DNA of 42,620 nucleotides from a virus (lineage: Duplodnaviria; Caudoviricetes). A model generated the notes under the pieces. The model had not been told where the DNA came from. It searched no databases and was given only the letters and a program-made list of their open reading frames with translations. A program made the translations under genes and the position numbers. This document shows, piece by piece, positions 2-38,447 of this stretch (positions within the stretch are counted from its first letter, which is position 1; every line of letters starts with the position of its first letter). Location: IMG/VR virus record IMGVR_UViG_3300028920_000133, positions 1-42,620 of that record; one strand, 5' to 3'.

Positions 2-634
2 CGTGTCATCACTCTCGGCGGCAATCCAGAAGAAGACCCGCTTTACCAAAATCTTACATCAAGAGCAAACGCAATAAACGCATCCTTGACTGGCTCCGAG
101 GGAGTGCTTGATCTTAACGCTCCACCGGCAGATCAAACAGTTGGTGCCACAGATTCAGGTGCCGCATCAGGACAGGCCGGTGGACTCCTTGCCCCGGACC
201 CCATGAGGGCAAGGGCAGATGCTGCGCTTGCTAGCGGAGTTGGCGCTAGAACAAACCAGCCGCCAGCAAATGTTTCACCAGACGCAAGGCTGGCCGATGT
301 TAGACCCGTTCAGCCAAGACCGGACGCCTCAACAACTGGTGGAGCAGCGGCAGCAGAACAGGCAGTGGCCGAATTGCCAGAGTCTTACTCTGACCTTGAG
401 ATGGCAATTCAGATGAACAACGAAGGTAAGGGAAACTACGTTGACATCATGATGTCAATGGACAAGGGATACACTCCTGAAATTATTCAGCTATTGCTCC
501 AGAGGCGCAGAGAGATGGGCGGAGATCAAGCGCAACAGAGAATGAGTGAATTCATGTTCGGCGGCGGCGTACAGGCACCGCAAACAATTCCAGCCGCAAG
601 AGGTAGAATGCGTGGGCTGGGAGGAAATGGCTAA
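2..634 (+). CDS. Virion/ejection-region protein, C-terminal part (5' truncated by the window)
   Basis: The frame is open from base 2 through the TTG at 86 to TAA at 632-634. Low-complexity Ala/Gly/Gln/Pro protein; stop overlaps the ATG of the giant gene. Confidence 0.7.
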   Translation, partial: RVITLGGNPEEDPLYQNLTSRANAINASLTGSEGVLDLNAPPADQTVGATDSGAASGQAGGLLAPDPMRARADAALASGVGARTNQPPANVSPDARLADVRPVQPRPDASTTGGAAAAEQAVAELPESYSDLEMAIQMNNEGKGNYVDIMMSMDKGYTPEIIQLLLQRRREMGGDQAQQRMSEFMFGGGVQAPQTIPAARGRMRGLGGNG

Positions 635-10559: not shown

Positions 10560-10661
10560 TTTGAACGCATGTTTGGGAGTATGTTTTTTTTCATCGCATG
10601 TATTAATATTGTGTCATGATTGATTGACGGCTGTCAACAACCAGAAGAAAACTTTTTCCGC

Positions 10662-10691
10662 AAGATGGGGCTTCGGCCCCGTCTTTTTTTT
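10662..10691 (+). terminator. Rho-independent terminator ending the late/lysis operon
   Basis: AAGATGGGGC-TTCG-GCCCCGTCTT followed by a T-run. Confidence 0.9.
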
Positions 10692-12437: not shown

Positions 12438-12767
12438 GTGAGACTTGAACCAAAGAAGTCGCTTGAAAATTCAGTTGCAACCAGAATCAGGCAGACATAC
12501 AGAGACCCCGCGGAGTGGGTTGTCTACCTCAGAAACGGTGAGGTCTGCCACATCGTAGCTGACAAGTCTAACCTGCGAGTGGCGCGTGGCAAGGAACTCA
12601 ACGAATCACTCAGGAAACAAATGAAGGGAGACGTTGAATTCATTAAGCACAAGCACGTCAACCGAAAGGTGGACACCGAAACAATGGTTAGGGAAACAGG
12701 GCTGAACCTTGGCGAAGGCGTCGAAGTTAATAGCTCAGTACCGGGAGATGTAGATGTCGTCGTCTGA
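12438..12767 (+). CDS. Hypothetical protein
   Basis: GTG start after AAGGGGG; 109 aa. Confidence 0.6.
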   Translation: MRLEPKKSLENSVATRIRQTYRDPAEWVVYLRNGEVCHIVADKSNLRVARGKELNESLRKQMKGDVEFIKHKHVNRKVDTETMVRETGLNLGEGVEVNSSVPGDVDVVV

Positions 12768-13608
12768 CGTATCAATGTTCGCGGAAGACCACGAAAAACT
12801 TCTCGGCTACCACAAGGATATGCCGAACGATGAGTACCACTCAGGCCCAGGTCTATCCAAGAGTGGGCTTGACCTCATCGACAAATCAATTCGCCACTTT
12901 ATCATGCGTGATGAGGTTAGAAGAGAGACCGACGCAATGGTGCTCGGCACCGCAGTTCACAGCGCAATTCTGGAACCACACACATGGCCCGGCCAGTACA
13001 TTAGGGGACCAGAGGACTGCGACATGCGGACCAAGGAGTGGAAGGCAGCGCTCCAGACCGCAGTGTCGAACAGTCAGACAATCATGAAACCGGAGAACTA
13101 TGACAAGGTTGAGAACATCGCAACCTCTGCCCTGTCGATAGAAGATCCGTTGATTGATGACATCAAGAACCTCAACGGAATGGCAGAGTCTTCAATCTTT
13201 ATGAGGGATGGAGAGACAGGACTGCTCGTCAAGTGCAGGCCGGACTTCCTCATCCCTGAGAGGAGAACGATCCTTGACGTGAAGACGACCAAGGATGCTT
13301 CGCCGGATGGGTTCGCAAGATCATGCGGCATGTTCAGGTACGATGTACAGGATGCGATGTACACGGACATTGTTGAGAAAATGTTTGGTGGTCAGTGGGA
13401 CTTTGTATTCCTTGCGGTGGAGAATGTGCCGCCGTACAACGCTGGCATCTACAGGTTGTCCAAGAAGGACAAGGAGAATGGGAGGATCTTGTACCGGAGA
13501 AACATGGCTAAGGCCGCGGAATACTTTGGCGGGTACTCAAAGGTGACGGCATATTCCGACAAGCTTGAAACAATTCAAATCCCATACTACTTCAGGAGGA
13601 ATCTGTGA
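12754..13608 (+). CDS. RecE/exonuclease VIII-like PD-(D/E)XK exonuclease (DUF3799-like)
   Basis: YH...GLSKS.L, GTAVH.AILEP, KCRPD, DVKTT and Y.VQ.A.Y motifs. Confidence 0.88.
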   Translation: MSSSDVSMFAEDHEKLLGYHKDMPNDEYHSGPGLSKSGLDLIDKSIRHFIMRDEVRRETDAMVLGTAVHSAILEPHTWPGQYIRGPEDCDMRTKEWKAALQTAVSNSQTIMKPENYDKVENIATSALSIEDPLIDDIKNLNGMAESSIFMRDGETGLLVKCRPDFLIPERRTILDVKTTKDASPDGFARSCGMFRYDVQDAMYTDIVEKMFGGQWDFVFLAVENVPPYNAGIYRLSKKDKENGRILYRRNMAKAAEYFGGYSKVTAYSDKLETIQIPYYFRRNL

Positions 13609-14300
13609 TTTCAGAAGACGATCCGGTCGGTGTCGAAACAACGTATCTCTGGGAGACAGTGTGCGACTCTGACCCAGGCACACTGAAGCACGTTACGCAG
13701 CGTGGTGGATTCACGGCCATCGCTGCGCAGGCACAGATCAAGAGAGCCACGGAGCTGTGGGGTCCATACGGATACAAGTGGGGGCTGAGGGACTGTAAGT
13801 TCAGCGGTCTTCCTGGGCAGGACGGTGCCGGGCTAGCGTGCCTTACGCTTGACGCAACGTTCTTCTACCCGTGCAGCCTTGACGGAGTGGTGCGTGAAGC
13901 GGTGTTTGAAATTTCCAGCGACATCGCGTATGACCCAAGGGGAGAATGTCGAAAGAAGCTCATGACAGACGTGACGACAAAGGCTCTGTCAAAGCTCGGA
14001 TTCAACGCTGACGTGTTCCTTGACCAGATGAAGTGGGACGGGAACAAGTACATCAACAAGGTGAAGAAGGAGCAGGAGCAATCCGGCAAGCTCGCCGCAG
14101 TAGTTGATCTCCAGAAAATCAAGGACGACAAAACAAAAAACTTTGTCAGGGCATGCGTGGGAACTGGTGCATCTGCTGACCAGATCTCCAAGCTTCTTGG
14201 CGTTGAGGGATACGAATCTCTCAATGAAATCACGGTGAAGGAGAAGCGTGTTGCGTTCGTAAAAGCTTTGCGTGAGATGGTTGACAACAACCCTGCATAG
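13605..14300 (+). CDS. ssDNA-annealing recombinase (Rad52/Sak-like)
   Basis: FTAI...QI..ATE.WGP.G..WG and KK..TD..TKALS.LGFNADVF; lies between the exonuclease and SSB. Confidence 0.65.
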   Translation: MISEDDPVGVETTYLWETVCDSDPGTLKHVTQRGGFTAIAAQAQIKRATELWGPYGYKWGLRDCKFSGLPGQDGAGLACLTLDATFFYPCSLDGVVREAVFEISSDIAYDPRGECRKKLMTDVTTKALSKLGFNADVFLDQMKWDGNKYINKVKKEQEQSGKLAAVVDLQKIKDDKTKNFVRACVGTGASADQISKLLGVEGYESLNEITVKEKRVAFVKALREMVDNNPA

Positions 14301-14309
14301 TGGTAGGAT
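14281..14309 (+). promoter_or_regulatory. sigma70-type promoter for ssb/replication genes
   Basis: TTGACA-17 bp-TAGGAT with extended TG. Confidence 0.65.
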
Positions 14310-14354
14310 GAATGTCCTGTCAGATTATTAACCCTTTACACAAATGGAGAGAAC

Positions 14355-14720
14355 ATGGGAGTCAACAGAGTAACGCTTCTTGGTAACGTTGGACGTGAGC
14401 CTGAGCTGCGGCAGGTTGGTGAAAATACGGTAGCCAACTTTTCACTGGCAACAACTGACCGCAGGTTCAAGGACAAGGACGGGAAGCCGCGCACAGAGTG
14501 GCACAACGTCTCAGCATGGGGCAAGCTAGCCGAGATCATTGGTCAGTATGTCAACAAGGGAACCACGCTCTACCTTGAGGGTAGAATCCAAACCCGCAGC
14601 TACGACAAGGAAGGCGTCAAGGTCTACCGCACTGAGGTCATCGCAGACCAGATGGAGATGTTGTCGAAGAGCGAAGCCGCTCCGGCACCAAGCAACACCA
14701 TCTCCGAAGACGACTTCTGA
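14355..14720 (+). CDS. ssb: Single-stranded DNA-binding protein
   Basis: VNRVTLLGNVGREPELR, TEWH.V..WGKLAE, EGRIQTRSY and an acidic C-terminal tail ending in F. Confidence 0.96.
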   Translation: MGVNRVTLLGNVGREPELRQVGENTVANFSLATTDRRFKDKDGKPRTEWHNVSAWGKLAEIIGQYVNKGTTLYLEGRIQTRSYDKEGVKVYRTEVIADQMEMLSKSEAAPAPSNTISEDDF

Positions 14721-19189: not shown

Positions 19190-19498
19190 GTGGAAGCAAC
19201 CGTAAGGATACATGACCATCCAGACAGGTGCTCAAAGGTAGTAGACTTTCGCTTTGAGATTCCTGAAACGTACATCTCAGAACTCGGCGCGGTCGCAGGA
19301 GCATACCTTAGTGACAGGTCTCCGGTCGGTGCATTCATTGCCCTTGGAAAGGCGATGATGCTATGCACGGACGACGAGAACGTTGGTGCGCTGGAGGACC
19401 TGACCAGGGAGGTTGCGAAGGCTCACAAGAGACATGTGTCTTACATGCTTGCACGTGACGTGGAAAGGGCAATGCTAAATGGCAAAGGCGGGCGGTAA
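19190..19498 (+). CDS. Hypothetical protein
   Basis: AGGAG RBS and GTG start. Confidence 0.6.
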   Translation: MEATVRIHDHPDRCSKVVDFRFEIPETYISELGAVAGAYLSDRSPVGAFIALGKAMMLCTDDENVGALEDLTREVAKAHKRHVSYMLARDVERAMLNGKGGR

Positions 19499-19919
19499 GA
19501 AAAGCAGGAACAAGGGAGCAAGCGGCGAGAACGAAGCATGTAAGTTACTGAGGAAAGATTTCCCTAGTGTTTGCAGGGAGCTGGAGCAATACCAGAAGAC
19601 CCTTGGTCGTGACCTCTCAAACACTGAGCCGCTTTGCATCCAGGTAAAGCGTCACAAAACAATTTCAAAATCTGAAATCTGGAAAGCGTTTTACGAGGCT
19701 GAGTCATCAGTTGATTCTGAATACACTCAGCCCATCGTTATGTTCAGGGAGGACTATGGAACATGGCAGGTAGCCACGACGATGGAGGTAATGCTATCTC
19801 TGATGGAGATGGACGCGGTGGACCCGGACGTATCACTGATGCTTCAGATGGAAGCAGATCAGTTTCTGACTTGGCTCGCAAAAAGCAGAGAGTGGGAGCC
19901 AAGCGACCGGGTGAGATAA
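19479..19919 (+). CDS. Holliday junction resolvase-like PD-(D/E)XK nuclease
   Basis: SRNKGASGENE...GRDL...IQVKR...P.VMFR...W.V. Confidence 0.75.
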   Translation: MAKAGGKKSRNKGASGENEACKLLRKDFPSVCRELEQYQKTLGRDLSNTEPLCIQVKRHKTISKSEIWKAFYEAESSVDSEYTQPIVMFREDYGTWQVATTMEVMLSLMEMDAVDPDVSLMLQMEADQFLTWLAKSREWEPSDRVR

Positions 19920-23864: not shown

Positions 23865-25205
23865 CTAGTATCCGTAGCCGTGAGGCACATCGATTTCAAT
23901 AATCTGTCCGAAGGGGATCTCATTGTCCGGCCAGTAGCACTTGACACTGTCAACCGGCTGGGTCGAAACCCACAGAACCGGGAACGATGGTACCCTATCC
24001 GGGAACGAACCGCACTCCATGTCGGAGCACACTATCATGGCGGTCGGGTCGCGGTCAACGTTTTCCTCCACCCACTTGAACGGGACGGGGAAGTACGTGC
24101 CGCCGTACCCGGAGTCGTCCTTGATGGGCAGGTCCTCACGGGTGTACTTCTTCACGCCCTGAATGTCAGAGTCGAAGTAAACCACGGTGATCTCCATGTC
24201 GAACTCCTCCAGCATTGCGTTGAGTTCCGACAGGAACTGCCGCCGCTCAAGCTTGGACACGGAGCCGGAATAGTCCATCGCAACGATGAGCCTCGGCTTA
24301 CCCTCGGAGTGCAGGCCGGGGAAGCTGAAGTCCTCACCGGAGTAGCGGCGGTTGCGGCGGGTGAATGAGTAGTCGTCCTTTGTGGTCTCTTCCAAAAAGT
24401 TGCGAAGCACTTGACGCCAGTCAACCTTGGGGTTGGTCAGCTCGTCGATCATGCCCTTCATCCAGCCGGGCACGGACCCCTGCATTTTCTGCGCGACCTG
24501 TGCGGCCTGCACCATTTTTACCGCCCAGTCCTGCTCCAGCTTGCGCTGCTTGTCGCGCTCCATGCCTCCCTGTGGGGGCTGTTGCTGCTGCTGCTGGTCA
24601 CCGTCCTGGTCACCGTCCTGGTCACCGTCCTGGTCACCGTCCTGGTCACCGTCCTGGTCCTGGTTGCCTCCTCCCTGCGGAGGCTGCACACCAACACCTC
24701 CACCTCCACCGCCGCCTTCGCCTTCACCTTCGCCGTCGCCGTCTTCGCTCTCCTCCTCCTCCAGGATCTTGTACGCCTGTTCGATTGTGACGGACGGGCT
24801 GATGTCGGGATGCGCAGGCCACGTTGGTGGGAGTTCGAACCCGGCCTCACGCGCAGCCACTCCGGTGATCATGCTGGACGCCATGTTCCAACGCTCGGCC
24901 TTGCGAGCACCACGCCGGAACGGGTGACCAAGACCGCACGCCAGCGACCCGGCTGCGAGAACACCCTTAAGCTGGTCGTCGGTTGCGCTGGCAACGAACT
25001 CATCCGGGAAGCTGAAGACCTCGCCGTCCACGGTCGGGATCTTCGTCTTCGCACCGGCACGCTTCAGGCCCAGGTTGAAGGCAAGCGTTGCGAACATAAC
25101 CGCGTCGAAGCTCATGGAGCCACGCGCCTTGGTCAGTCTCTTGGAAAAGGTTTCGTCGTCCATGATCGGTTCGGTGTCGGCGTTGGTCGGCATGGCGGAT
25201 GTCAT
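23865..25205 (-). CDS. DUF2201-type metallopeptidase-like N-domain plus vWA domain protein (peptidase motif degenerate)
   Basis: P.VDWRQVLRNF, RRNRR, MIDAS motif DYSGS, GYGGT.F and SDME. The N-domain reads GVLAAGSLACGLGHPFRRG. Confidence 0.85.
   Translation of the reverse strand: MTSAMPTNADTEPIMDDETFSKRLTKARGSMSFDAVMFATLAFNLGLKRAGAKTKIPTVDGEVFSFPDEFVASATDDQLKGVLAAGSLACGLGHPFRRGARKAERWNMASSMITGVAAREAGFELPPTWPAHPDISPSVTIEQAYKILEEEESEDGDGEGEGEGGGGGGGVGVQPPQGGGNQDQDGDQDGDQDGDQDGDQDGDQQQQQQPPQGGMERDKQRKLEQDWAVKMVQAAQVAQKMQGSVPGWMKGMIDELTNPKVDWRQVLRNFLEETTKDDYSFTRRNRRYSGEDFSFPGLHSEGKPRLIVAMDYSGSVSKLERRQFLSELNAMLEEFDMEITVVYFDSDIQGVKKYTREDLPIKDDSGYGGTYFPVPFKWVEENVDRDPTAMIVCSDMECGSFPDRVPSFPVLWVSTQPVDSVKCYWPDNEIPFGQIIEIDVPHGYGY
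24594..24653. repeat. Five perfect tandem copies of the 12-mer CTGGTCACCGTC (encodes DGDQ linker repeats)
   Basis: Read directly from the sequence; in frame within the vWA gene's acidic linker. Confidence 0.95.
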
Positions 25206-26080
25206 CGCGCACCTCCCTGGATTGTGGTGATACTGCTTGCGAGTGCCTTGGCTGCGGCGTTGCGCTTGGCGTCGTCGTCGCGCAGGTCGTCAGCGCCCAC
25301 TGCGACAATCGCCTGCTCAATTTCGCTGACCAGTTTGTTGATGGTTTGGTCGTCGCCAATGTTGAGATCCTTCAGCCAGCGCTGCTGCTCCTGGATGTTG
25401 GCGACAAGCGACCTGCGGATGCCGCGCGGGTCACCCTTGCGCAGGACCCTGAGCGATTTCCTGAACACCTCAACGGCCTCGGCGGCGACGGCGCTGCGCA
25501 TGTCCTCCATGCGCTCGGCCATCTGCGATTCGAACGACCCAGCGATCTCCTCCACTGCCTCACGCGGCACGTCAAGCAACCAGTCAGGCTCGGACGGGAG
25601 TTCGTTCACGTAGTATTTCAGGTTGAACTTGCCGCTGAACTCATTGGTCGTCGGGTAGTCCTCGGCCTTGAACACCGGACCCAGGCGATCAGCCTGCTCG
25701 GCTACGATGCCCGGCCATTCAAGGGCCATCTCTTCGACGACTGCCTTGAATTGTTTCTTGTAGCTCTCCATCGTCTTGGCGTAGTCCAGTAGATCCTGGC
25801 CTCGGACGATGCCCACTCTGCGCCCGGCCCACGGGCGGGTCTTGCGGTAGTGGTAGCGGCGAGCCTGTCCCAAAATCTTTTTGGCGAGTTCCAGCCGACC
25901 GTCGATCACGGTGCGCTTGGTCACCTTCACGTCGTCGTGGTCGATCCCGTGCGCCTTGGCGCTGGCCTCGGTCATGTCGAAGTCGATCTTCTCGGGGGTG
26001 TAGCACGCTGCCTCAAACGTGATGAGTGCGAATCCCTGACGGGCGTTGGCGATGGCGGTTTCGATATCGGCAAATGTCAT
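25202..26080 (-). CDS. DUF3150-like helical protein
   Basis: AR.YHY..T.PW...G...LG..F..EDYP......KF; lies between the MoxR ATPase and vWA genes; GGAGG RBS. Confidence 0.65.
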   Translation of the reverse strand: MTFADIETAIANARQGFALITFEAACYTPEKIDFDMTEASAKAHGIDHDDVKVTKRTVIDGRLELAKKILGQARRYHYRKTRPWAGRRVGIVRGQDLLDYAKTMESYKKQFKAVVEEMALEWPGIVAEQADRLGPVFKAEDYPTTNEFSGKFNLKYYVNELPSEPDWLLDVPREAVEEIAGSFESQMAERMEDMRSAVAAEAVEVFRKSLRVLRKGDPRGIRRSLVANIQEQQRWLKDLNIGDDQTINKLVSEIEQAIVAVGADDLRDDDAKRNAAAKALASSITTIQGGAR

Positions 26081-26111
26081 GGCTGACCTCCTGTTCGGTT
26101 CGGTCGTTTGT

Positions 26112-26167
26112 GTGAGACCCATGTAACGCACCCTTCACTACGTTCAGGGTGCGCTACAGGGTCACCC
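26112..26167 (-). repeat. Intergenic hairpin H1 with conserved loop (+ strand CT-TCACTACGTTC-AG)
   Basis: TGTAACGCACCCT / AGGGTGCGCTACA arms around TCACTACGTTC. Confidence 0.9.
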
Positions 26168-26174
26168 CAGGTTG

Positions 26175-27269
26175 TCACCCCTCAATCACGTCGGGGTTGT
26201 TCTGGAACCACTTGACAAAGTGGTTGGTGTTGGCGATGTCGGGGCAGCGGGTGAAGGCGTCCTTCACCGCGAAGGCACCGAAGTCTTGCGGCAGCTTCGC
26301 AACCAGTTCGAAGAACTGTTTCGCGTTTGCCTTGGTCGCACGCCCTGCGATGGCCGCAGTCGTGGCGTACAGCACGTCCACTTTGTCCAGGCCAGGGCAC
26401 TTGAACGAAGACGGGTCGGTGTAGAGCAGGTCGATGTTCGGCAGGGCATGGAACATGCGGGAGAAGCCCAGCCACTCAATGGCCCAGCCGCCGTCGGTCG
26501 CACCGGCATACATCGCAAGCTCCAGCCCATCCGGGATGCCGTGAACGTAGGCGTCGAAGGCGTTGGTCACCGTGCGGGGGGTGCGCTCATTGTCGCAGCC
26601 GAGAGACGGCTTGAACTTGGGGTTGGCTCTCGCCCACAGGAACTCCAGCCCACGGAAGCGGATGAATGCCACGCACTCAGGCGGGTAGTTGTTGGCGATG
26701 GCCCACTTGGAGTAGTCCTCCACGGTCGGCTCCACCGTGTACAGGAACGCCCTGGTCTTGATGGTCGTGAGGAATCCCTCAACACCGGCCTTGTCCTCCG
26801 CACGGTTGGCGCACATGATGAACCGCACGTGGTCGGAGATCTTGTGGCCGTCGATCCTACGCTCCAGGATCAACTGCTGGATGGCGGCTTGCACCATGCG
26901 CGGTGCCTGCCCGAAGTCGTCCAGGAACACAACCAGCGGGCGGTCGGCTTCGATCATCCGGCGCAGGTCGCCGAAGGCGAAGAACTCTGCCCACTTGACA
27001 CCGTTCTCGTCGGTGTTGAAGCCGGGCATGCCCTTGAAGTCGGTCGGGTCTGCGACCTGGGGATGCATGATCAGGATGTCATACGGGAGATTGTCCAGCT
27101 CGTAACGCAGGTTGGCGACAACCTGCTTGGCGATGTCTGTCTTCCCGATACCGGGCGCACCGAAGAGGATGCAGTTCTGCCGGTGCTGGACGTGAAACGT
27201 CAGGGCCTTGATGGCCTCCCCAATGGTGATGGTTGCGGTGCCCTGCGAAACGCTGGTGTTCTGTGCCAT
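26175..27269 (-). CDS. MoxR/AAA_5-type ATPase
   Basis: Walker A GAPGIGKT, DPTDFKGMP, Walker B VVFLDD, ANR.EDKAG and TPRT. Confidence 0.9.
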   Translation of the reverse strand: MAQNTSVSQGTATITIGEAIKALTFHVQHRQNCILFGAPGIGKTDIAKQVVANLRYELDNLPYDILIMHPQVADPTDFKGMPGFNTDENGVKWAEFFAFGDLRRMIEADRPLVVFLDDFGQAPRMVQAAIQQLILERRIDGHKISDHVRFIMCANRAEDKAGVEGFLTTIKTRAFLYTVEPTVEDYSKWAIANNYPPECVAFIRFRGLEFLWARANPKFKPSLGCDNERTPRTVTNAFDAYVHGIPDGLELAMYAGATDGGWAIEWLGFSRMFHALPNIDLLYTDPSSFKCPGLDKVDVLYATTAAIAGRATKANAKQFFELVAKLPQDFGAFAVKDAFTRCPDIANTNHFVKWFQNNPDVIEG

Positions 27270-27413
27270 GCTGACCTCCATGTGTGTTGCGGGTTAGTAG
27301 ATATGCGCTCAGTGACAGTTGTTGTTTCTGCTTTCGCCGCTTGTGTCTCCGGCGAAATACTTTGTACCTTCGCCGCACTGAGCGTAGCCTTCTGGCTCCG
27401 CCCAACCTGGACA

Positions 27414-28022
27414 TCAGTTCACCGGCTCGTCGTCGCTGAACTTGGCGGCAGCCTGCATGCTCTCTGCGGTCGGGACGCTTGCGTTGGGGTTGATCACCTG
27501 CCCGCTCTGCCCGTCCACCTCCATGATCTGCCCGATCTTCGCAACGTATGCCTCGGCAGACATACAGGCGAAGGGAACAACTTCCGTGAAGAAGTTGGTG
27601 AACTCTTCGCCACCATCCACCTCTGCCTTGGCGTGCATGTCTGCGAGGGAATCGAACATCTCATGCAGTGCGTCTGCGTCTGCCCGGCCAACGATCCCTG
27701 CGGGGACACCATTGGGCGAGGTGATGGTGATGCAGCCGTTCTCTTCCAGGTCGTTGCCAACGACAACCATGCACATGAGTTGAGGGTTGGCGTCCTGGCA
27801 GAACAGCATGATCTCCTGGGTCACGCGCTCAATCGGGATATCGACGATGCCGGTGCTGGCAATCAGCGCCTCAACCTCATCGCCTCCCATGGGCGTGGAC
27901 TTCTGCGACACAAGCTGCACCTGCGTGGTTGTCTCCGTTACTGGGCAGACAAACGCAAGCACAAGCTGCGCATCGATCACGTGGTTTTCGAAGTTGGCTT
28001 CCTTGCGGGTGATCTCGGTCAT
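27414..28022 (-). CDS. Hypothetical acidic protein
   Basis: AAGGAG RBS before MTEITRK. Confidence 0.65.
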   Translation of the reverse strand: MTEITRKEANFENHVIDAQLVLAFVCPVTETTTQVQLVSQKSTPMGGDEVEALIASTGIVDIPIERVTQEIMLFCQDANPQLMCMVVVGNDLEENGCITITSPNGVPAGIVGRADADALHEMFDSLADMHAKAEVDGGEEFTNFFTEVVPFACMSAEAYVAKIGQIMEVDGQSGQVINPNASVPTAESMQAAAKFSDDEPVN

Positions 28023-28073
28023 ACTATTTCTCCTTTGTCCAATGGTCCGTTGATAATTGGCGACTGTCAACAA

Positions 28074-28373
28074 CTATTTTCGCATCATCCACCGGGACAG
28101 CTCGGCCCACGTGGTCACGTGCTCGGGATAGTGGTAGCGCAAGCGCTCCGGGATTGCGGAATGGTCGCTGACCCTGTCGTACCAGTGAGACTTCCCATCC
28201 TTGCCCATGCACCACGGGTCGCTGTACTCGTAGTGGTGCGGGATCGGTGCGCCGGTATGCAGTGCCTGATGCACGGCGCGTCGGTAGGCCCGGTGCCATT
28301 GCCGCTTGTCGTCCTTTTCGCTGGGGCTGGTCGTCCAGCCGCTGACGGGGGAGCGTTTGAAGCTGCGGGCCAT
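28074..28373 (-). CDS. Small basic phage protein
   Basis: MARSFKRSP...SEKDDKR.WHR..R...DPW.M.KDGK; GGAGG RBS. Confidence 0.7.
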   Translation of the reverse strand: MARSFKRSPVSGWTTSPSEKDDKRQWHRAYRRAVHQALHTGAPIPHHYEYSDPWCMGKDGKSHWYDRVSDHSAIPERLRYHYPEHVTTWAELSRWMMRK

Positions 28374-28405
28374 GTCTGCCTCCAATCGGTTTGGGTTTGT
28401 CGGTG

Positions 28406-28465
28406 GGGGGAAGTAGGATCTCTACCCCCTTCACTACGTTCAGGGGGTAGAGATCCTACTCCCCC
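28406..28465 (-). repeat. Intergenic hairpin H2 with conserved loop
   Basis: 19-bp perfect arms AGTAGGATCTCTACCCCCT / AGGGGGTAGAGATCCTACT around TCACTACGTTC. Confidence 0.92.
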
Positions 28466-28758
28466 GGTTTCTGCGGCATGATTTTGAAGTAGCCCTGCAT
28501 ATCTTCAGGCGGGGGAGTGGTCAGCGGCACATGCGCGGATGAGATGAACTTGTCGTCGCTAATGATCAGATTCCAGGTCCCGTCTGTCCACTTGATAACC
28601 CGCAGCCTGCCGATTCTGAAAGGCATCTTCGCCCACAGCTTGGACGTCACGTCCAGGCGCAGCGTCTTGAACTTCGCACCCCCACCGTGCGAGCCTGCAA
28701 GGTACATGGGCCGGTCAACAATCGCCTCATCCCAGGACATCGCGGTCATTTCAAACAT
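28456..28758 (-). CDS. Hypothetical protein
   Basis: GGGAG RBS before MFEMTAM. Confidence 0.6.
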   Translation of the reverse strand: MFEMTAMSWDEAIVDRPMYLAGSHGGGAKFKTLRLDVTSKLWAKMPFRIGRLRVIKWTDGTWNLIISDDKFISSAHVPLTTPPPEDMQGYFKIMPQKPGE

Positions 28759-28855
28759 GTTTTCTCCCTTCACCACGGGACCGACGCGCCGGTATCGCGG
28801 TCATGCATGATGAGATCGTAGATCTCTTGCGCATCATAGCCGTCGTCGCTGTAGT

Positions 28856-29032
28856 TCATCGCTGCTCCCTTTCGCTGAAAAGTTTTTGCATGACGTACCG
28901 TGGCACATGCTTGGTCATTTCGCCTGCGGTTTTAGCGGTGCGCACATGTGCCTTGGCGATCTTCAGGGTTTCGATCTCATCTTCAATGATATCTACGATA
29001 TCATCACGGTCGGTCAGCTTTGCGTCCATCAT
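28856..29032 (-). CDS. Hypothetical protein
   Basis: ATGA-coupled to the upstream gene. Confidence 0.5.
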   Translation of the reverse strand: MMDAKLTDRDDIVDIIEDEIETLKIAKAHVRTAKTAGEMTKHVPRYVMQKLFSEREQR

Positions 29033-29352
29033 GTGGAACAGTGTCCGTGCTGCACGGCCCCGGCCTTGAGCCACTGGGTCCGACCGATCCACTTGTCAAG
29101 TTCCTCGCCCTCATCCTTCAGGCTGTAGATCTTCACGACCTGATCGGTGGCGGTGTCCCAAACCGACAGGCGATCCCACTCAAACGGGTGGCCGACAAAG
29201 CCGAGCTTGCGCGTCATGACCAGCAGACCCGACGCCATGTCCAGGGCAAGCTCACGGGTGATTGCGGTACCGACAACGGTAGGGCGATTGGCGAACGGGT
29301 AACGGTTCCCACCTCGTCGGGCGTGCGCCTCTTCAATCACGATCTCGTACAT
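29029..29352 (-). CDS. Hypothetical protein
   Basis: GGAGGTG RBS. Confidence 0.65.
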   Translation of the reverse strand: MYEIVIEEAHARRGGNRYPFANRPTVVGTAITRELALDMASGLLVMTRKLGFVGHPFEWDRLSVWDTATDQVVKIYSLKDEGEELDKWIGRTQWLKAGAVQHGHCST

Positions 29353-29416
29353 ATCTCACCTCCAAATGGTTTTCGAAATACCCTCAGCCGGGGAGGGTAT
29401 TCCGAAACTCACTCGG

Positions 29417-29617
29417 TCAGCCCGCCTGCACCCAGGTTACCCAGGGCGCAACGGTGCGGGCGGTATCAACGTCGGCGGTCGCCACCTTGACCAGCCATTC
29501 CTCGTCCACCCATGCGGACTCGGCTGTGTAGTCCACGGTAAAGTTAACGCCCGCTGCCGAAAGCAGCCCGGCCACCTCGGCCACGTCGTCGCTAAACATG
29601 AGATCCGCCTTGTGCAT
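29417..29617 (-). CDS. Hypothetical protein
   Basis: GGGGAG RBS before MHKADL. Confidence 0.55.
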   Translation of the reverse strand: MHKADLMFSDDVAEVAGLLSAAGVNFTVDYTAESAWVDEEWLVKVATADVDTARTVAPWVTWVQAG

Positions 29618-29618
29618 G

Positions 29619-30323
29619 TTACTCTCCCCTCGCAACTGCGCTAGCCTGTTTATATTTCGACCCGTGCGCCTCCAGCCCGACGACAAACGTCCGGTCCCGG
29701 CGGGCGCAGAGACCGCAGGTCTCGCACGTTACCTCGCCCGCCTTGGCGGGACACATCACGACCTTGTGACCGTCGGGAGTCCGGTGATTTTTCTTGGTTC
29801 CCTTTGGAACCACTACGGCAACCGGCCCGATGCCGAGAGCCACCAGCTTGTCCGCATGGGCAAGGTTGTTCGCGCTGAGGTTCACGGTGAACCCGTTGTC
29901 GTTGGCGAACTTGATCAGTTGTCGGTTCGACTCGGCTACGCCGGGGAGGTCGGTATCCTCATCCAGCACAGGCTTGTGTGTGTAGGTAAACCCTCTGCGC
30001 CCACGGTTAGCCTCCACCTTCCGGCGAAACATTTCCGGGTTGATCACGTCGCCCTCGCCGGGTTGGTCGCCCACCATGCAGTCGCGCCACACGGTGCCCT
30101 CAGGCATGCACGTGATACCCTGGAGGAACTCATCGTAGGGCAACCCCCTGCGCCCAGCGGTTACCTCGTACCAGTGCATGTTACAGGGGAAATTCTCCCC
30201 GAAGCATCCGTTCCCCTTGAACGGACAGGCGGGCGGGCAGGTCGATTCGGGCGACGTGGTTCGGTGGATCGCGCCCAGTTTTTTGTGCTTTGTGGCGGGC
30301 GAGATGTGGTATAGCTCGGGCAC
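29619..30323 (-). CDS. Cys-rich phage protein (Gp88/DUF7227-like, probable Fe-S binding)
   Basis: TCPPACPFKGNGC, GFTYTH, GFTVNLSAN, CPA...C..C.LC and AHG; GGAGG plus GTG start. Confidence 0.7.
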   Translation of the reverse strand: MPELYHISPATKHKKLGAIHRTTSPESTCPPACPFKGNGCFGENFPCNMHWYEVTAGRRGLPYDEFLQGITCMPEGTVWRDCMVGDQPGEGDVINPEMFRRKVEANRGRRGFTYTHKPVLDEDTDLPGVAESNRQLIKFANDNGFTVNLSANNLAHADKLVALGIGPVAVVVPKGTKKNHRTPDGHKVVMCPAKAGEVTCETCGLCARRDRTFVVGLEAHGSKYKQASAVARGE

Positions 30324-30355
30324 TGCTACCTCCGTTTAGTTTTGGTTTGTAGGGC

Positions 30356-30406
30356 TGTTAGTATCTCTCACCCCTTCACTACGTTCAGGGGTGAGAGATT
30401 CTAACA
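30356..30406 (-). repeat. Intergenic hairpin H3 with conserved loop
   Basis: 20-bp arms with one mismatch, TGTTAGTATCTCTCACCCCT / AGGGGTGAGAGATTCTAACA, around TCACTACGTTC. Confidence 0.92.
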
Positions 30407-30413
30407 CCTCTTT

Positions 30414-30650
30414 TCAGTCGGCCAGCCCGGCGCTTTTCCAGACGGCGGCCTTCACCTGATACCTTAGCCGGTCTCGCAGCCGCATGGTATCATAAAGCAT
30501 GCGCTTTTCATAGTCAAGCCGGGTCGGGTCGCCGGTTTCGGCTTGCCACTCCCGCGCCTCTTCAATCCTGCGCCTGCATGCACGCAGTTCGTTACTGAGG
30601 GCGAACAAGACGATACAAGCTTGCGAACGGTCCAGCGTATACTTTTCCAT
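30414..30650 (-). CDS. Hypothetical protein
   Basis: GGAGGTG RBS. Confidence 0.6.
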   Translation of the reverse strand: MEKYTLDRSQACIVLFALSNELRACRRRIEEAREWQAETGDPTRLDYEKRMLYDTMRLRDRLRYQVKAAVWKSAGLAD

Positions 30651-30661
30651 GTGCACCTCCG

Positions 30662-30892
30662 TTACTTTCGGCGCGGTCGCAGCCCAGCGGCGATCCGTGC
30701 AAGGTTATTCCCCCAGGTTTCCGGTGCATTTTCCAGATCTCGGAGCCGCTGCCCCGACTGGACACACACCCTCTTCACCTGCGACTTACTCACGGGCACG
30801 GAGCGTGGTTTGGTCTCCTCAATTTTGCTGGCAAGATTTTCGAATACCCTGCGCCATTCCTGCTGACGTTCCTTTTCGGTTTTTTTCACGGT
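30662..30892 (-). CDS. Small basic hypothetical protein
   Basis: AAGGAG RBS and GTG start (ORF track gives 30889). Confidence 0.55.
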   Translation of the reverse strand, partial: TVKKTEKERQQEWRRVFENLASKIEETKPRSVPVSKSQVKRVCVQSGQRLRDLENAPETWGNNLARIAAGLRPRRK

Positions 30893-30957
30893 GTCTCCTT
30901 TCGCACGGGTTAAGTCCCGCTTATGCTACCGCCCACACGGGGGCGGTAGGGAAAGCG

Positions 30958-31116
30958 TTACTCAGTGATCAGTTCGGTCGCCACGAATCCGGGCAGCCTA
31001 GACCACATACACTCCAGCGTTTCAATGGCGCGGTAGAAGCCGCGCACGGTCGGCTCGCCTACTTGGAGACTGACGGATTCACGGTCGGCGAAATGAATGA
31101 CGAGATATCCACGCAT
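30958..31116 (-). CDS. Small hypothetical protein (52 aa)
   Basis: Read manually (MRGYLVIHFADRES...); fills the gap between neighbours. Confidence 0.5.
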   Translation of the reverse strand: MRGYLVIHFADRESVSLQVGEPTVRGFYRAIETLECMWSRLPGFVATELITE

Positions 31117-31117
31117 G

Positions 31118-31384
31118 CTACACCCCCAGGATGTTAGTCAGAGATTTTGCGATGGTGCGGAGAGTGTTACGATGGCTGATCCGTTCGGCCATCAGTACCG
31201 CGTAGCGGTCGCGCTCTTCGAAGCTACCGTGCGCGTGGTGCTGCTTTCGCGCCGTTTCGAAAAAATCAATACAATCTTGGATTGTGTTGATCTCCCCACG
31301 GATGCACGTCAGTAACTCCGTGAGATTCGGGTTTTTCGGCAGGCTCCAGAGGTCGGGCGTGGTCGCGTCCTTTTTCGTGCGCAT
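31118..31384 (-). CDS. Hypothetical protein
   Basis: GGAG RBS. Confidence 0.6.
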   Translation of the reverse strand: MRTKKDATTPDLWSLPKNPNLTELLTCIRGEINTIQDCIDFFETARKQHHAHGSFEERDRYAVLMAERISHRNTLRTIAKSLTNILGV

Positions 31385-31387
31385 AGG

Positions 31388-31669
31388 TCACTCTCCAATC
31401 AGGTTCAGGTTCCAATCGATCATGACGTCCCCGTGAAACGACACGAAATCTTCGATCTCGTCGGTTTCCATGAGAAGATCCACCTCTTCGAAGCAGCGCA
31501 GTCGGACTTCAAAATCCCAGATCAAACCTCCCCAGTATTCCGCCCACTTGCAATGCACGGTATAATCCAGCCCGCGCTTGGTCAATTCGCCTGCGATATA
31601 TCTCGCATTATCCTCAAAGTAGGCCGTGCCTTCGGCGGTGTCAATCTTTGTCGGAAAAAATTTCGCCAT
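31388..31669 (-). CDS. Hypothetical acidic protein
   Basis: GGGAGG RBS. Confidence 0.65.
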   Translation of the reverse strand: MAKFFPTKIDTAEGTAYFEDNARYIAGELTKRGLDYTVHCKWAEYWGGLIWDFEVRLRCFEEVDLLMETDEIEDFVSFHGDVMIDWNLNLIGE

Positions 31670-32014
31670 TGTAGCCTCCCCAGCTTGTTCTCAGAACCGA
31701 CCTCACGCATGATGAATCACCATCGTAGCGTGCGCGGTTCTCAGAACACTCCGTGGTCCTGTCCTCTCTTGCCCGTTCGCTTCGCAGCGGTTCGGGACCG
31801 TTGATCAGTCGCCCGTCTGTTTATAACCCGCATGGTTCTTTCGCACCCGTGGGATTGAAAGCTATAACGTGGCACCCCAGGCTAGACTGTCGGGTAGCTC
31901 ACACCCTGTACGCGGTCTCCGCACCTACGCAAGCGCCTGTGGTTGGTTCGCCGGGCCGACGGGCCGTGCGGCGTGGTAACCTAGACTTGCAGCCTGCTAC
32001 CGCGTACTCTTCGA

Positions 32015-32026
32015 TTGTCAAAGAAC
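32015..32026 (-). promoter_or_regulatory. boxA-like antitermination site in the early operon
   Basis: The - strand reads GTTCTTTGACAA, nearly identical to the boxA before the tRNA array. Confidence 0.55.
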
Positions 32027-32089
32027 TGTTGGGTCACGAAACAAACCCCACATACGCAGCCGGTTAAGACTGCGCATGCGGGGGTGGTC

Positions 32090-32293
32090 TCAGCCCGCCT
32101 TGCGAACGGTGATCAAAACACCATCATCGTCGGAGTAGGTCACCAAGGTCGCACGGGTGAGCGTGGTTTTGATTTCGCGGATGTGGGCGCTGATGGCCTC
32201 CAAGACTTCGCCTAGCGGCGTGGTGGAATCGCATCCAAGATAATCGATGTGCTCAAATTCGCCGTCGGTGTAGGTTGCAACGATTTCGCGCAT
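32090..32293 (-). CDS. Hypothetical protein
   Basis: AAGGAG RBS before MREIVATY. Confidence 0.6.
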   Translation of the reverse strand: MREIVATYTDGEFEHIDYLGCDSTTPLGEVLEAISAHIREIKTTLTRATLVTYSDDDGVLITVRKAG

Positions 32294-32428
32294 AGGTGAC
32301 TCCTTTTCGCTTGCGGGCATGTGGTTATTTCGCTTGCGGGTGAACGAAAAACCGCCCACGTGGTGTCACCAACCTGCAATCCGCATCATGGCGGTGCCGG
32401 TTAGCGCTCTTCACGTGAGCGGTATTTG

Positions 32429-32620
32429 TCATTTCGCCTCCGCGCCGGAAGCTTCGCGGAAGTAGTCGGCGGAGATCTCCACGGCGGAGACCAGTTCTTC
32501 GCGGTATCCGCATGCGGTCCAAAGCTGCGCGACCACGTCAAGGTACCGCGCCAACTCGCCAAATTCCTCCGGCACGTTCGCCTCGCAGATGATTTCGTTC
32601 GACCAGTCCAATTTTGCCAT
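32429..32620 (-). CDS. Hypothetical protein, first gene of the - strand block
   Basis: GGGGAG RBS. Confidence 0.6.
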   Translation of the reverse strand: MAKLDWSNEIICEANVPEEFGELARYLDVVAQLWTACGYREELVSAVEISADYFREASGAEAK

Positions 32621-32628
32621 GTTTCTCC

Positions 32629-32708
32629 CCCGTTTCTCCGAGTTAGGTTGTATATATCTCTCTCACCCCTTCGGGGAGAGATATATACAACCTAACTCGG
32701 GAAACGGG
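32629..32708 (-). repeat. Long hairpin H4 (about 33-bp arms) upstream of the first early gene
   Basis: CCGAGTTAGGTTGTATATATCTCTC / GAGAGATATATACAACCTAACTCGG; shares TCTCTCACCCCTTC with H3. Confidence 0.9.
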
Positions 32709-33138
32709 TGGAGGTTACGCCGATCAGCCCGTTTTCGGCACCGGACCAACCTGTCACAAACGACCCAACCTGACTAACCTGACACACCTGACAATCCTGC
32801 CACGGCGTGCATTTTGAGCACAGCGGCACTATCCGACCAAGCATGCCCAATCGGCCACGGCGTGACCATCCGACCAAGCTTGCCCATCATGACGATCAGG
32901 TGCGAAGTCTGAGAGGTTCGCCCACAGCCCGCAGGTAGTTCTCCGCATGCCCGGAATTTGAACGCTAGCGGGCCTGAGCCTGCGCGGAATGCTACCTGCG
33001 TGGGTCAGGGTATAAACGGGCGCACATGCGGTTTAAGGGCCGTTTCTGTTCGAAATTCGCCTAACGTTAACTTTAGTTAACGTTTCGACAAATTGGGGTT
33101 GTTGCAAGATGCAACACCCTACTACGTAGGGAGTTGAA

Positions 33139-33746: not shown

Positions 33747-34232
33747 ATGGGATACAATGAGATTGTCATGGGATACAATGAAGCGTATAGCGAACTACAG
33801 AAAGAATATGCTAGGCAGTATTACCAGAAGAACAGAGAGAAGATCAACGCAAGGAGAAGAGAGAAGTACAGGAAGGACCTGGAGGAATCCAGAAGGCTAG
33901 CAAAGAAGAGGCAGTCTGAATTCCGTAAGGCCAATCCCAAATACTACAGAAGGAAATACTACAAGAGCAAGAAGAAGCCAGACTGGGTAAAGAAACCGAT
34001 CTGGTGGAGAAAGGAATTCGTCAACCGATATAAGGAGATGGTGGGCTGTGAAGAGTGTGGCGGTAGATACAAGGGCTACGTCCTAGACCTGCACCACATC
34101 GATCCAGGGCAAAAGAGTTTCACAGTGAGCGCCTGCAACGTAAACCGTAAACATGAACTCATCAGGCAAGAGATCAAGAAGTGTGAGGTTCTCTGTGCAA
34201 ACTGTCACAGGGAACTCCACTACAACGCTTGA
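33747..34232 (+). CDS. HNH endonuclease
   Basis: CEECG...LDLHHIDP..K...EI.KC.VLCANCHRE.H with a basic N-terminus. Confidence 0.88.
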   Translation: MGYNEIVMGYNEAYSELQKEYARQYYQKNREKINARRREKYRKDLEESRRLAKKRQSEFRKANPKYYRRKYYKSKKKPDWVKKPIWWRKEFVNRYKEMVGCEECGGRYKGYVLDLHHIDPGQKSFTVSACNVNRKHELIRQEIKKCEVLCANCHRELHYNA

Positions 34233-34474: not shown

Positions 34475-34714
34475 CATCTTGTAAAGAAGATGTAAAAGTT
34501 TTGGCTAAACCCCTAAAAAGTTGTTGACAGTCGTAGTCCAAGTATGACACAATACTAATACATGGGATGGGATGAAAAAAAACAAACACTCCCAAACATG
34601 CGTTCATTTTCAATGAACGTTTATTTTTGGAGGACACCATGACCTGAGGTCACACTGGTTGAGCTAGCTTTTAAGTATAAGGTTTTAGTGGAAACAGCTA
34701 GCGGGGGAAACAAC

Positions 34715-38304: not shown

Positions 38305-38447
38305 TGGTTCTGTAGCTCAACTGGTAAGAGCGGGAGCTTAACGGCTCCGACACACACTTCGCGGCGAAGTAACCCACGTCGGGAGAAATGTGTAGGCAGG
38401 ACTGGTTACCCTGTCGGTGCGGGTTCGAATCCCGCCAGAATCAACCA
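38305..38447 (+). ncRNA. tRNA-like RNA with a large structured insertion
   Basis: Canonical D-arm (TAGCTCAACTGGTAAGAGC), T-arm (GCGGGTTCGAATCCCGC), acceptor TGGTTCTG/CAGAATCA and ACCA end; 143 nt in total. Confidence 0.7.

Follow-up and report, generated by a model that had tools for sequence, protein, structure and literature searches.

Intercistronic hairpins occur at the early RNase III sites R0.3-R1.3 of phages T3 and T7, where a hairpin of about 20 bp lies ahead of the ribosome-binding site (RBS); the stems are conserved, the loops are variable, and folding is mostly confined to one strand. Integrons form arrays of gene, bulged hairpin, RBS and gene with diverse stems, in which the attC site carries the consensus RYYYAAC...GTTRRRY (R''/R' boxes), varies in its terminal structure and is served by a cognate integrase. 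In the T4-type phages, the PeSL cassettes, as far as they are described by Arbiol 2010 (PMC2839356), are repeated stem-loops between small, variable early genes that combine a terminator with a sigma-70 promoter, are conserved in sequence and are exchanged via short common homology including the Shine-Dalgarno region. The CGTC/TGTC REP repeats of bacteria have a terminal tag and a stem of 8-9 bp, and are dispersed and often dimeric (Di Nocera 2013, PMC3733652, in the part covering these repeats). GCGNAGC and CCGAAGG are described as extra-stable DNA loops that form mini-hairpins at the G4 origin, RSF1010 ssiA and the N4 promoters (PMC13037366, in the part on these loops), and the L7Ae-binding K-loop Kl is given as GTGTGAACGGTGATC (PMC3711428, in the part on this loop).

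We analyzed a 42,620-nt stretch of phage DNA (hereafter, the window) for which an original prediction proposed three early-gene hairpins with a common apex. These hairpins are real: the apex 15-mer occurs three times in the window (26133-26147, 28429-28443 and 30374-30388, all on the minus strand) and not once in 100 shuffles. The identical apex of H1-H3 spans 19 nt (CCCTGAACGTAGTGAAGGG). The stems had been assigned 13-20 bp, which is too short: they comprise about 18 (H1), 24 (H2), 20-25 (H3) and, in the fourth hairpin, H4, 38 pairs (arms 32625-32662 and 32676-32713), with DNA folding z-scores of -3.6, -7.9, -8.0 and -12.0, respectively. The predicted location just past a stop codon holds for H1 and H3 (8 nt and 2-7 nt after TGA, respectively), but not for H2, where the stop codon TAG of the upstream gene (28456-28458) is within the 5' arm. 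No gene precedes H4, which heads the operon and contains the RBS of the first gene (ATG 32620) in its 3' base. Its cGAAg apex and the stem sequence in common with H3 (ATCTCTC...GGGGTGAGAGA) were correctly recognized; the apex is accompanied by a 4-nt 3' bulge (GTGA/TGAG). Likewise, the ACAAAC... leader, GGAGG and a start codon follow each of H1-H3 (starts at 26080, 28373 and 30323). The A+C content of these leaders is 71-82%, but such leaders are not hairpin-specific, with 3 of the 15 other listed ones (27268, 25205 and 31116) at 71-75%.

Table 1. Hairpins, leaders and relevant genes in the window.
Feature	Position	Strand	Details
RecE-like exonuclease (DUF3799), neighbouring gene and SSB	12754..14720	+	
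RusA-like Holliday junction resolvase	19479..19919	+	phrog_244, E 6e-14
292-aa gene behind H1	25202..26080	-	DUF2201 metallopeptidase/vWA gene next
Leader and GGAGG behind H1	26081..26111	-	A/C-rich
H1, GA-capped palindrome	26112..26167	-	AAA ATPase/292-aa gene junction; core stem 26116-26163, loop 26135-26145
AAA ATPase upstream of H1	26175..27281	-	phrog_1297
99-aa ORF behind H2	28074..28373	-	without family match
Leader and GGAGG behind H2	28374..28406	-	A/C-rich
H2, palindrome	28407..28465	-	24 bp; loop 28431-28441
DUF7227/phrog_2554 gene behind H3	29619..30323	-	
Leader and GGAGG behind H3	30324..30350	-	A/C-rich
H3, palindrome	30351..30411	-	arms related to H4; loop 30376-30386
First early ORF, 63 aa	32429..32620	-	directly behind H4
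H4, operon-head palindrome	32625..32713	-	38 bp; cGAAg apex and GTGA bulge

The early operon resembles an integron array in alternating genes with bulged hairpins of diverse stems and an RBS. The order RYYYAAC...GTTRRRY of attC is absent from H1-H4, in which the terminal structure is fixed instead, and neither PF00589 (tyrosine recombinase) nor PF01797 was found in the 42.6 kb fragment. The resemblance to the PeSL cassettes lies in the recurrence of stem-loops among small, variable early genes and in the proposed exchange by short homology. In contrast to the PeSL cassettes as described (PMC2839356), H1-H3 have neither a U-tract nor a downstream promoter, their stems are mutually unrelated in sequence, and the G.A/GNA cap is fixed. 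A promoter search downstream of H1-H4 returned none, with only weak, intragenic minus-strand matches nearby. H1-H4 are not in the terminator list of the window and have A/C-rich sequence 3' of them; the loop of a T-tailed terminator at 10672 is UUCG. Rfam covariance models (including hammerhead and twister) matched only tRNAs at the gathering score in the window and 14 carrier loci, and a low-stringency search of the same set gave miRNA matches only, all sub-threshold.

The hairpins belong to an uncatalogued family common to many unrelated phages, including cultured marine ones. Scan estimates put the carriers of the apex at about 470 stretches in viruses and 5,700 in bacteria. The apex occurs in three settings: on long stems in the intergenic space before early genes of phages; on short stems of 4-9 bp within replication-initiator genes, on the non-mRNA (template) strand; and in TGTC-tagged REP-like repeats. 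All 24 tested ORFs containing the 15-mer (drawn from the 26 short-stem matches among 52 distinct matches in L001-L080) match PHROGs of replication-initiator, primosomal or DnaD-like proteins, and the caps in initiator genes adjoin simple-repeat tracts. In bacterial genomes, 92 of the 130 distinct matches are GTCA-tagged REP-like repeats, often inverted dimers. The TGTC-AT-tagged REP-like repeats of many bacteria bear the identical apex, which is all they have in common with the phage elements: H1-H4 lack the CGTC/TGTC tag, and whereas REP stems, as described in PMC3733652, carry a tag, are short and dispersed and often form dimers in both orientations, those of the phages are untagged, long, single and polarized. 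The cap is always on the coding strand, with a co-oriented RBS and start codon within 75 nt in 60 of 68 cases and none with these in the reverse orientation only. Bulges limit most helices to 7-10 bp and cluster at 7-9 and 16-18 bp. H4 belongs to a second family, whose members head the early operon in cyanophages P-SSP7, P-GSP1, P-SSP2 and P-SSP3 and in roseophages CRP-1 and CRP-345; cyanophages appear to carry the operon-head copy only. The P-SSP7 copy (nt 331-420) sits 125 nt inside the 206-bp terminal repeat, at the place occupied by phiOL in T7. Of the cyanophage H4-type copies, 14 have a -10 box, and in 8 of these it ends 6-9 nt ahead of the stem base.

Cap variants retain structure (tandem G·A, a 2-bp mini-stem and a GNA or TTTA loop) rather than sequence. 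The R..Y pair among 94 caps is A-T in 37 and G-C in 53, with 4 mismatches, and the middle loop base is free; long-stem copies favour A-T 21:1, and other settings favour G-C. The GNA triloop is found in 13 of 15 stemmed matches vs 8 of 73 unstemmed ones. The orthologous caps in L152 and L164 switch to AA-CC-GAA-GG-GA, most phage variants retain ...RUGA, and HMO-2011-type caps retain ...RTGA with the 2-bp mini-stem broken in several variants. H4-type apices have TTTA loops in 25 of 29 cases, the others being CTTG or GAA; TTTA and CTTG are stable DNA loops. A GNA triloop with a C-G closing pair and a free N is present, as in a cGNAg mini-hairpin. The hairpins of N4 promoters are short and on the template strand; the phage elements here are long and on the non-template strand. 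The C-GNA-G triloop is shared with the mini-hairpins described in PMC13037366, and CCGAAGG is within H4 and the L152/L164 variant. RNA energy rules favour the inner cap by 1.2 kcal/mol, and the DNA parameter set gives no gain. The cap covaries as structure, and the selection on structure proposed in the original prediction is supported. The accompanying claim that an invariant loop implies a recognized sequence is weakened, given that the same apex occurs on REP-like repeats and on the antisense strand of replication genes, and that orthologous copies exchange it for other G.A/GNA or TTTA caps. The fixed loop is likely there to cap and stabilize folded DNA and not to serve as a code word.

The hairpins likely mark joints at which early genes are swapped. 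In an 18-locus marine family (the L134 family), six or seven different ORF types occur behind one hairpin, the leader and RBS are duplicated by inserted ORFs, and 39 of 76 alignment ends lie no more than 80 nt from an apex (4.7% of the sequence), although these counts are not independent and swap points near hairpins are expected at any gene boundary. L416, the sole true relative fetched (45% aa), lacks H1 and has an extra 71-aa ORF at the H1 junction. ORF gain, loss and swapping between relatives, as in PeSL cassettes, is thus far seen in the L134 family, and one junction differs in L416; joints between hairpins were not found in the shallow contigs of the window's own phage. Members of the DUF7227/phrog_2554 family are also close to hairpins of this kind in L150, L168, CRP-345 and loci of cyanophages. 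The RusA-like resolvase is a candidate cruciform cutter, and the RecE-like exonuclease, its neighbouring gene and SSB are candidate annealing machinery; resolvase and RecE-like genes are present in the window and in L139, L147 and L150. No protein family is common to all scanned carriers.

Judging from these sequence features, the best explanation, to which we assign a probability of roughly 40%, is that H1-H4 are DNA cruciforms or hairpins marking cassette-exchange joints; among the three options originally offered, the one of cGNAg DNA hairpins at cassette joints fits best. The strand-symmetric palindromes would act as folded DNA, either a cruciform or a single-strand hairpin, and the fixed apex, as a predicted stabilizing cap, would make the joints preferred places for early-gene gain, loss and swap. 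The cap probably folds as Y-GA, 2 bp, a GNA triloop and GA-R, that is, tandem sheared G.A pairs and a mini-hairpin, and would ease extrusion on the non-template (lagging-template) strand, when early transcription is strong or during replication. The extruded junction might then be nicked or cut, for example, by the phage RusA-like resolvase, or the fork might stall, and RecE/annealase-type repair would use the repeated leader-plus-RBS as short homology, so that whole ORFs would move while each hairpin would remain intact. The transcript copy would fold too, and RNase III might plausibly cut the longest stems (H2 and H4) as a side effect. In favour of folded DNA count the use of the cap in initiator genes and REP-like repeats, its covariation as structure, the scarcity of G.U in the stems, the gene swaps in the L134 family, the altered H1 junction of L416 and the resolvase and RecE-like genes. 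The absolute polarity and the cyanophage -10 boxes fit an RNA 5' stem-loop at least equally well and count against folded DNA, as does the apparent presence of only the operon-head copy in cyanophages, where shuffling explains nothing. The same holds for the energy rules on the inner cap, the broken mini-stems of HMO-2011-type caps, the A-T preference of long-stem copies and the lack of H1 in L416.

Punctuation of the early RNA is a tentative alternative, and rather doubtful: the hairpin at the operon head would shield the early message at its 5' end, and those inside the operon would be decay barriers or RNase III sites, resulting in single-gene messages, each with an open A/C-rich ribosome landing site. 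The layout is that of T3/T7, where hairpins precede the first gene and separate the early genes, each with an A/C-rich leader and RBS behind it; the stems begin at the stop codon, in several cyanophage copies the start site coincides with the base of the stem, and the L134 family has a sigma-70 promoter 39-49 nt upstream of its first loop. Short helices suit RNase III avoidance, as would those of 7-10 bp between the bulges. The layout envisaged in the RNase III or 5' stabilizer option stands, but the conservation pattern is the reverse of that of the T3/T7 sites, and the stems fold equally well on either strand. G.U accounts for 11 of 1440 pairs (~1%) in 68 GA-capped stems, 4 vs 290 Watson-Crick pairs in 16 cluster representatives, and 0 vs 915 in 29 H4-type stems (symmetric aligner), compared with 33 of 189 (17%) in ten T3/T7 RNase III-type regions (T3 sites from annotation, T7 gaps picked by gene positions), 29 of 391 in the tRNAs of the window and 11 of 213 in one-way terminators. 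Clustering leaves the G.U:A.C ratio weak on its own (4:3 in total, 3:0 within the first 18 pairs), and template switching without selection could remove G.U. The sense-minus-antisense folding energy averages -1.2 kcal/mol, and is -3.9 to -13.8 in 8 of the 10 RNase III controls. Moreover, the loops are of the DNA type, unlike the UUCG of the terminator at 10672, and the same cap occurs in initiator genes, where the mRNA copy does not exist.

The K-loop option fares somewhat worse and, on sequence grounds, is unlikely: the tandem G.A with R-U-GA would be a K-loop-like site, or the 3' GUGA would be recognized by a factor of the host or phage, perhaps in antitermination as at put or nut sites, with the factor loaded anew along the operon. 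The K-turn signature (tandem G.A, R-U before the second GA) is present in H1-H3 and most variants, GTGA before a purine-rich arm is common to the H4-type and GA-capped types, HMO-2011-type caps keep the 5' GA and 3' RTGA despite inner variation, and the T before GA is kept 21:1 in long-stem copies. The same early operon contains what we take, from the boxA consensus, to be a boxA-like word, which we count in favour of this option. K-turns require G1b, G2n and an unpaired L3. Orthologous ...GTAA, AA...GGGA and ...ACGA caps lose G1b, G2n or U-L3, the position following the first GA and L3 covary as a Watson-Crick pair, and the H4-type apices have no 5' GA, making a K-turn impossible. Kl as given in PMC3711428 shares the UGA-ACG...GUGA apex with the phage sequence (TGAACGTAGTGAA), a 2-nt insertion apart and with different closing pairs, but the motif is lost in H4 and several orthologous variants. 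A K-loop could apply to H1-H3 but fails for H4 and for the orthologous variants in one family. L7Ae (PF01248) was not detected in the window (about 43% complete) and occurs in 7 of 14 control genomes, but not in the alphaproteobacterial (Caulobacter), cyanobacterial (Synechococcus) and Bacteroides controls for the host groups, and the lack of a protein family shared by all carriers also argues against this option.

A role of the folded non-template strand in marking sites of primosome loading or R-loops, such as the cap appears to have in initiator genes, is improbable. The association with simple-repeat tracts in 24 of 24 such genes, the mini-hairpins at the G4 origin, RSF1010 ssiA and N4 promoters (as covered in PMC13037366) and the phiOL-like place of the P-SSP7 copy favour priming, but the initiator copies are short and on the template strand, whereas H1-H4-like copies are long, on the coding strand and one per joint, and the skew profile tracks gene direction, giving no independent origin signal. 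Very improbable is that stable caps nucleate fold-back copying in replication or repair, with the palindromes as by-products that the phage tolerates. Such an origin would correspond to the almost perfect Watson-Crick pairing of the arms, whose slippage-type bulges lie in CT/AG runs, to the inclusion of adjacent stop codons or RBS in the arms and to the absence from L416, but the fixed polarity, the clustered bulges and the same H4 architecture across cyanophages, roseophages and the window phage argue for selection.

Extending the reading of H1-H4 as folded DNA at cassette joints beyond the window, it is conceivable, if doubtful, that many unrelated dsDNA phages, from T7-like cyanophages to a sediment phage, use a shared two-part DNA-structure system that drives integrase-free shuffling of the early array. 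One part of this system would be a long bulged cruciform where early transcription begins, the other the G.A/GNA-capped cruciforms at gene joints; early transcription would extrude them, the resolvase encoded by the phage would cut them, and the array would comprise host-takeover genes. A loop that stays invariant while the stems vary may be a thermodynamic cap, the DNA counterpart of UUCG, and not a protein-binding word, which calls for caution in reading such loops. The occurrence of the family in cultured phages, such as the model cyanophage P-SSP7 and roseophage CRP-345, makes the choice between DNA and RNA directly testable. Phage early regions show the fastest gain and loss of counter-defence genes, a turnover that may reflect passive homology-driven recombination or be aimed by dedicated sites; if the present reading is true, a shared DNA-structure mark would be a dedicated site that aims early-gene recombination.

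The hairpins in the small-gene block are real. The apex shared by the palindromes H1, H2 and H3 occurs exactly three times, always on the coding strand, and in none of 100 shuffles; the identity spans 19 nt, and all four hairpins, H4 included, fold far better than shuffled sequences. The original prediction gave the H1-H3 stems as 13-20 bp, which is too short (18-24 bp measured), and its placement of each hairpin just after the upstream stop codon fails for H2, whose palindrome contains that codon; H4 heads an operon, with no gene preceding it. The predicted A/C-rich leader does follow the hairpins, but it is also found at hairpin-free genes and is not specific to them. A promoter inside the stem (TAGAAT in H3, TAGGAT in H2) was rejected, as no suitably spaced -35 match is present and its position, judged by eye, is not constant among families; an Rfam search detected no ribozymes in the hairpin slots.

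Sequencing runs that match the 42.6 kb fragment, which CheckV puts at ~43% complete, come from marine sediment, with small shares from salt marsh. The fragment also encodes a terminase and 23 tRNA genes, and its small-gene block is termed early by inference from the gene layout. Single low-depth contigs from run X10 represent a related strain, for the most part 90-99% alike, in which the HNH endonuclease gene is missing and the first ORF after H4 is different.

Hairpins and other features of the phage fragment (window coordinates)
Feature	Position	Strand	Description
Replication module		+	RecE-like DUF3799, SSB, initiator, DnaB, RusA-like resolvase
Polyvalent protein	634-8589		2651 aa; two ART-PolyVal ADP-ribosyltransferase stretches; probably an injected virion protein
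Related ~80-nt blocks	10562-10641 and 34520-34606		Opposite orientation, 24 kb apart; both with TTGACA promoter-like sequence; possibly a common promoter/operator
Small-gene block	~20.4-32.6 kb	-	Includes DUF7227, AAA ATPase, DUF2201 metallopeptidase/vWA gene
H1	26112-26167	-	G.A/GNA apex
H2	28407-28465	-	G.A/GNA apex
Intergenic palindrome	29365-29410	-	15 bp, GGTATTTCGAA in 3' arm; resembles the 41-bp palindrome hosting CGTC-1 REP dimers in H. neapolitanus, described in PMC3733652
H3	30351-30411	-	G.A/GNA apex
Apparently non-coding stretch	31670-32030	-	~350 nt within early block; RNA fold z = -2.1; no match in Rfam
boxA-like sequence	~32014-32026	-	GTTCTTTGACAA, containing TTGACA; resembles an rrn boxA antiterminator
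Terminator-like hairpin	32046-32083		T-tailed, on the - strand; precedes GTTCTTTGACAA
Part of the first ORF after H4 that differs in the X10 strain	32443-32588
H4	32625-32713	-	cGAAg apex
HNH endonuclease gene	33747-34232
138-nt tRNA	38306-38443		Called by Rfam, missed by ARAGORN; possibly carries an insertion

Scans for the apex yielded 133 loci from 17 of 64 parts of IMG/VR (~470 stretches estimated in all) and 123 loci from 2 of the 64 GTDB parts (~5,700 estimated), and the apex was found in three settings. In class A, a long intergenic stem stands ahead of a leader and a start codon. Among 68 distinct class A hairpins scoring at least 10 (drawn from the window, two cultured-phage regions and loci L001-L289), a start in the same orientation lies within 75 nt of 60; no hairpin has only a reverse start, and 8 have neither, in some cases because the contig stops. 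Three or more GA-capped hairpins cluster in L098 (230-370) and in L015 (~1400-1515), in AT-rich non-coding sequence where no gene starts downstream; these clusters are origin- or terminus-like.

Class B comprises short stems within a long ORF of the opposite strand, where the motif encodes 'SSLRSE'; 26 of the 52 distinct hits in L001-L080 have short stems, and each of the 24 ORFs tested matches a replication-initiator, primosomal or DnaD-like family. In this setting the cap cannot belong to the mRNA. In class B loci such as L010, L024, L029 and L080, and in L144, the G.A/GNA cap lies on the template strand of the initiator-gene linker region, often accompanied by extra GC-rich mini-hairpins and simple-repeat tracts; in these phage replication-initiator genes, this is a likely origin signature. 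Class C consists of GTCA-tagged REP-like repeats (92 of 130 distinct bacterial hits), which resemble the CGTC/TGTC REP superfamily (PMC3733652). The TGTCAT-tagged repeat with this apex (L292-L414) is very widespread, in Bacteroidota, Chloroflexota, Firmicutes and others; no GIY-YIG or tyrosine transposase that could mobilise it is encoded by any of 31 ORFs neighbouring REP-like copies.

With H3 or the L031 hairpin as query, BLAST against cultured phages returned nothing meaningful. Among seven cultured phages with a DUF7227-like gene (PAK_P1, CRP-345, CRP-361, CRP-114, Lucius, RcZahn and 45A6; CRP-361 and CRP-114 alone as whole records), such hairpins were present only in CRP-345.

When the triloop was left free in the pattern, GNA was recovered in 13 of 15 stemmed versus 8 of 73 unstemmed hits; with the flanking pair free, A-T or G-C was found in 90 of 94 distinct hits, and REP-like copies and L138 contain additional types of mini-stem. 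We read the apex, from its sequence variation, as a probable structure: Y-GA, two pairs, a GNA loop and GA-R. Tandem G.A pairs are stable in the YGAR context. The cGNAg loop is described in PMC13037366 as an extra-stable DNA motif; RNA energy rules likewise favour the inner cap. A purely thermodynamic cap would be at odds with the A-T preference of long-stem copies (21:1) and with the HMO-2011-type caps, in which the interior varies and ...RTGA is constant.

By its sequence, H4 is assigned to a second hairpin family. A pattern derived from H4 and CRP-345 yielded 63 stretches in IMG/VR; together with those two, 29 sequences are distinct. Stems are mostly 30-45 bp, interrupted every 7-11 bp, and the apex has 2-4 bp with a TTTA, CTTG or GAA loop and a GTGA bulge on the 3' side. 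BLAST identified the element in P-GSP1, P-SSP2, P-SSP3, CRP-1 and CRP-345; the P-SSP7 copy (331-420) lies 125 nt inside the 206-bp terminal repeat. The element is positioned ahead of the first early gene, and in HMO-2011-type loci, as in the window, a GA-capped hairpin follows ~1-1.4 kb later. Long non-coding leaders with tRNA-like arms are found behind the hairpin in P-SSP7 (L611:420-1079) and P-SSP3 (L612:730-1070). A -10 box is visible in 14 copies: in 8 of these it ends 6-9 nt short of the stem base, and in the other 6, for which a shorter stem was computed, the gap is 12-18 nt; no comparable promoter was seen before H4 of the window.

We tentatively favour, with a probability of about 0.4, the reading that these elements are folded-DNA joints where genes move. 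The cap would help the non-template strand to extrude, after which a resolvase would cut or a fork would stall, and repair via the short leader-RBS homology would shift whole genes. Cassette behaviour is seen across one marine family of 18 loci, in which the ORF after the same first hairpin belongs to any of six or seven types, as judged by eye. At two junctions in the operon's conserved portion no hairpin is present. In this family, 39 of 76 alignment ends, which are not independent, fall within 80 nt of an apex, a zone making up 4.7% of the sequence. Inserted ORFs duplicate the leader-RBS; hybrid hairpins were never seen, and small plain hairpins can replace capped ones. Exchange at the apex itself was rejected, since the arms remain self-complementary and the breakpoints map to the RBS or to the base of the stem. 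Searches of viral contigs with the ATPase and the 292-aa protein gave no loci, and a metagenome scan over 23 of 64 parts recovered the window itself and L416. In L416, the only relative recovered, the H1 junction has an extra Zn-ribbon-like 71-aa ORF instead of a capped hairpin; thus, the junction is plastic and H1 dispensable there. Several DNA contigs (~2-20x depth; 8 of 10 matching runs) end at palindromes, which assembly alone suffices to explain.

RNA stabilisation or processing, rather unlikely overall, gives the best account of the start-site alignment in H4-type copies. G.U accounts for 33 of 189 pairs in RNase III controls (five T7 gaps and five annotated T3 sites), for 29 of 391 in tRNAs of the window, 11 of 213 in 32 one-way terminator-like hairpins, and 11 of 1440 in class A stems. 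Single-linkage clustering placed the class A stems in 16 groups, one with 48 hairpins, and the representatives gave 4 G.U versus 290 Watson-Crick pairs. With a symmetric aligner, H4-type stems have 0 G.U versus 915 Watson-Crick pairs; RNA folding of three cultured copies gave 1-2 G.U apiece. The strand difference in class A folding averages -1.2 kcal/mol, about equal on both (-0.9 to -6.4 for H1-H4). The G.U:A.C ratio by itself decides neither for DNA nor for RNA, and template switching could also produce G.U scarcity.

A GUGA or K-loop read by a protein is unlikely: the apex nearly matches a validated K-loop, but this reading is weakened by H4, by the distribution of L7Ae and by orthologous variants, GAACGTAAGTAA or AACCGAAGGGA taking the place of the cap at one position in the marine phage family. 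Priming is improbable, and an origin as scars highly so. These readings are mutually compatible.

Rfam contains no match to the hairpin elements, and no published account was found in open-access text. The layout works like that of PeSL cassettes and of T7 RNase III punctuation, but lacks defining features of each. The cap itself is a known DNA motif; what is new is its setting.
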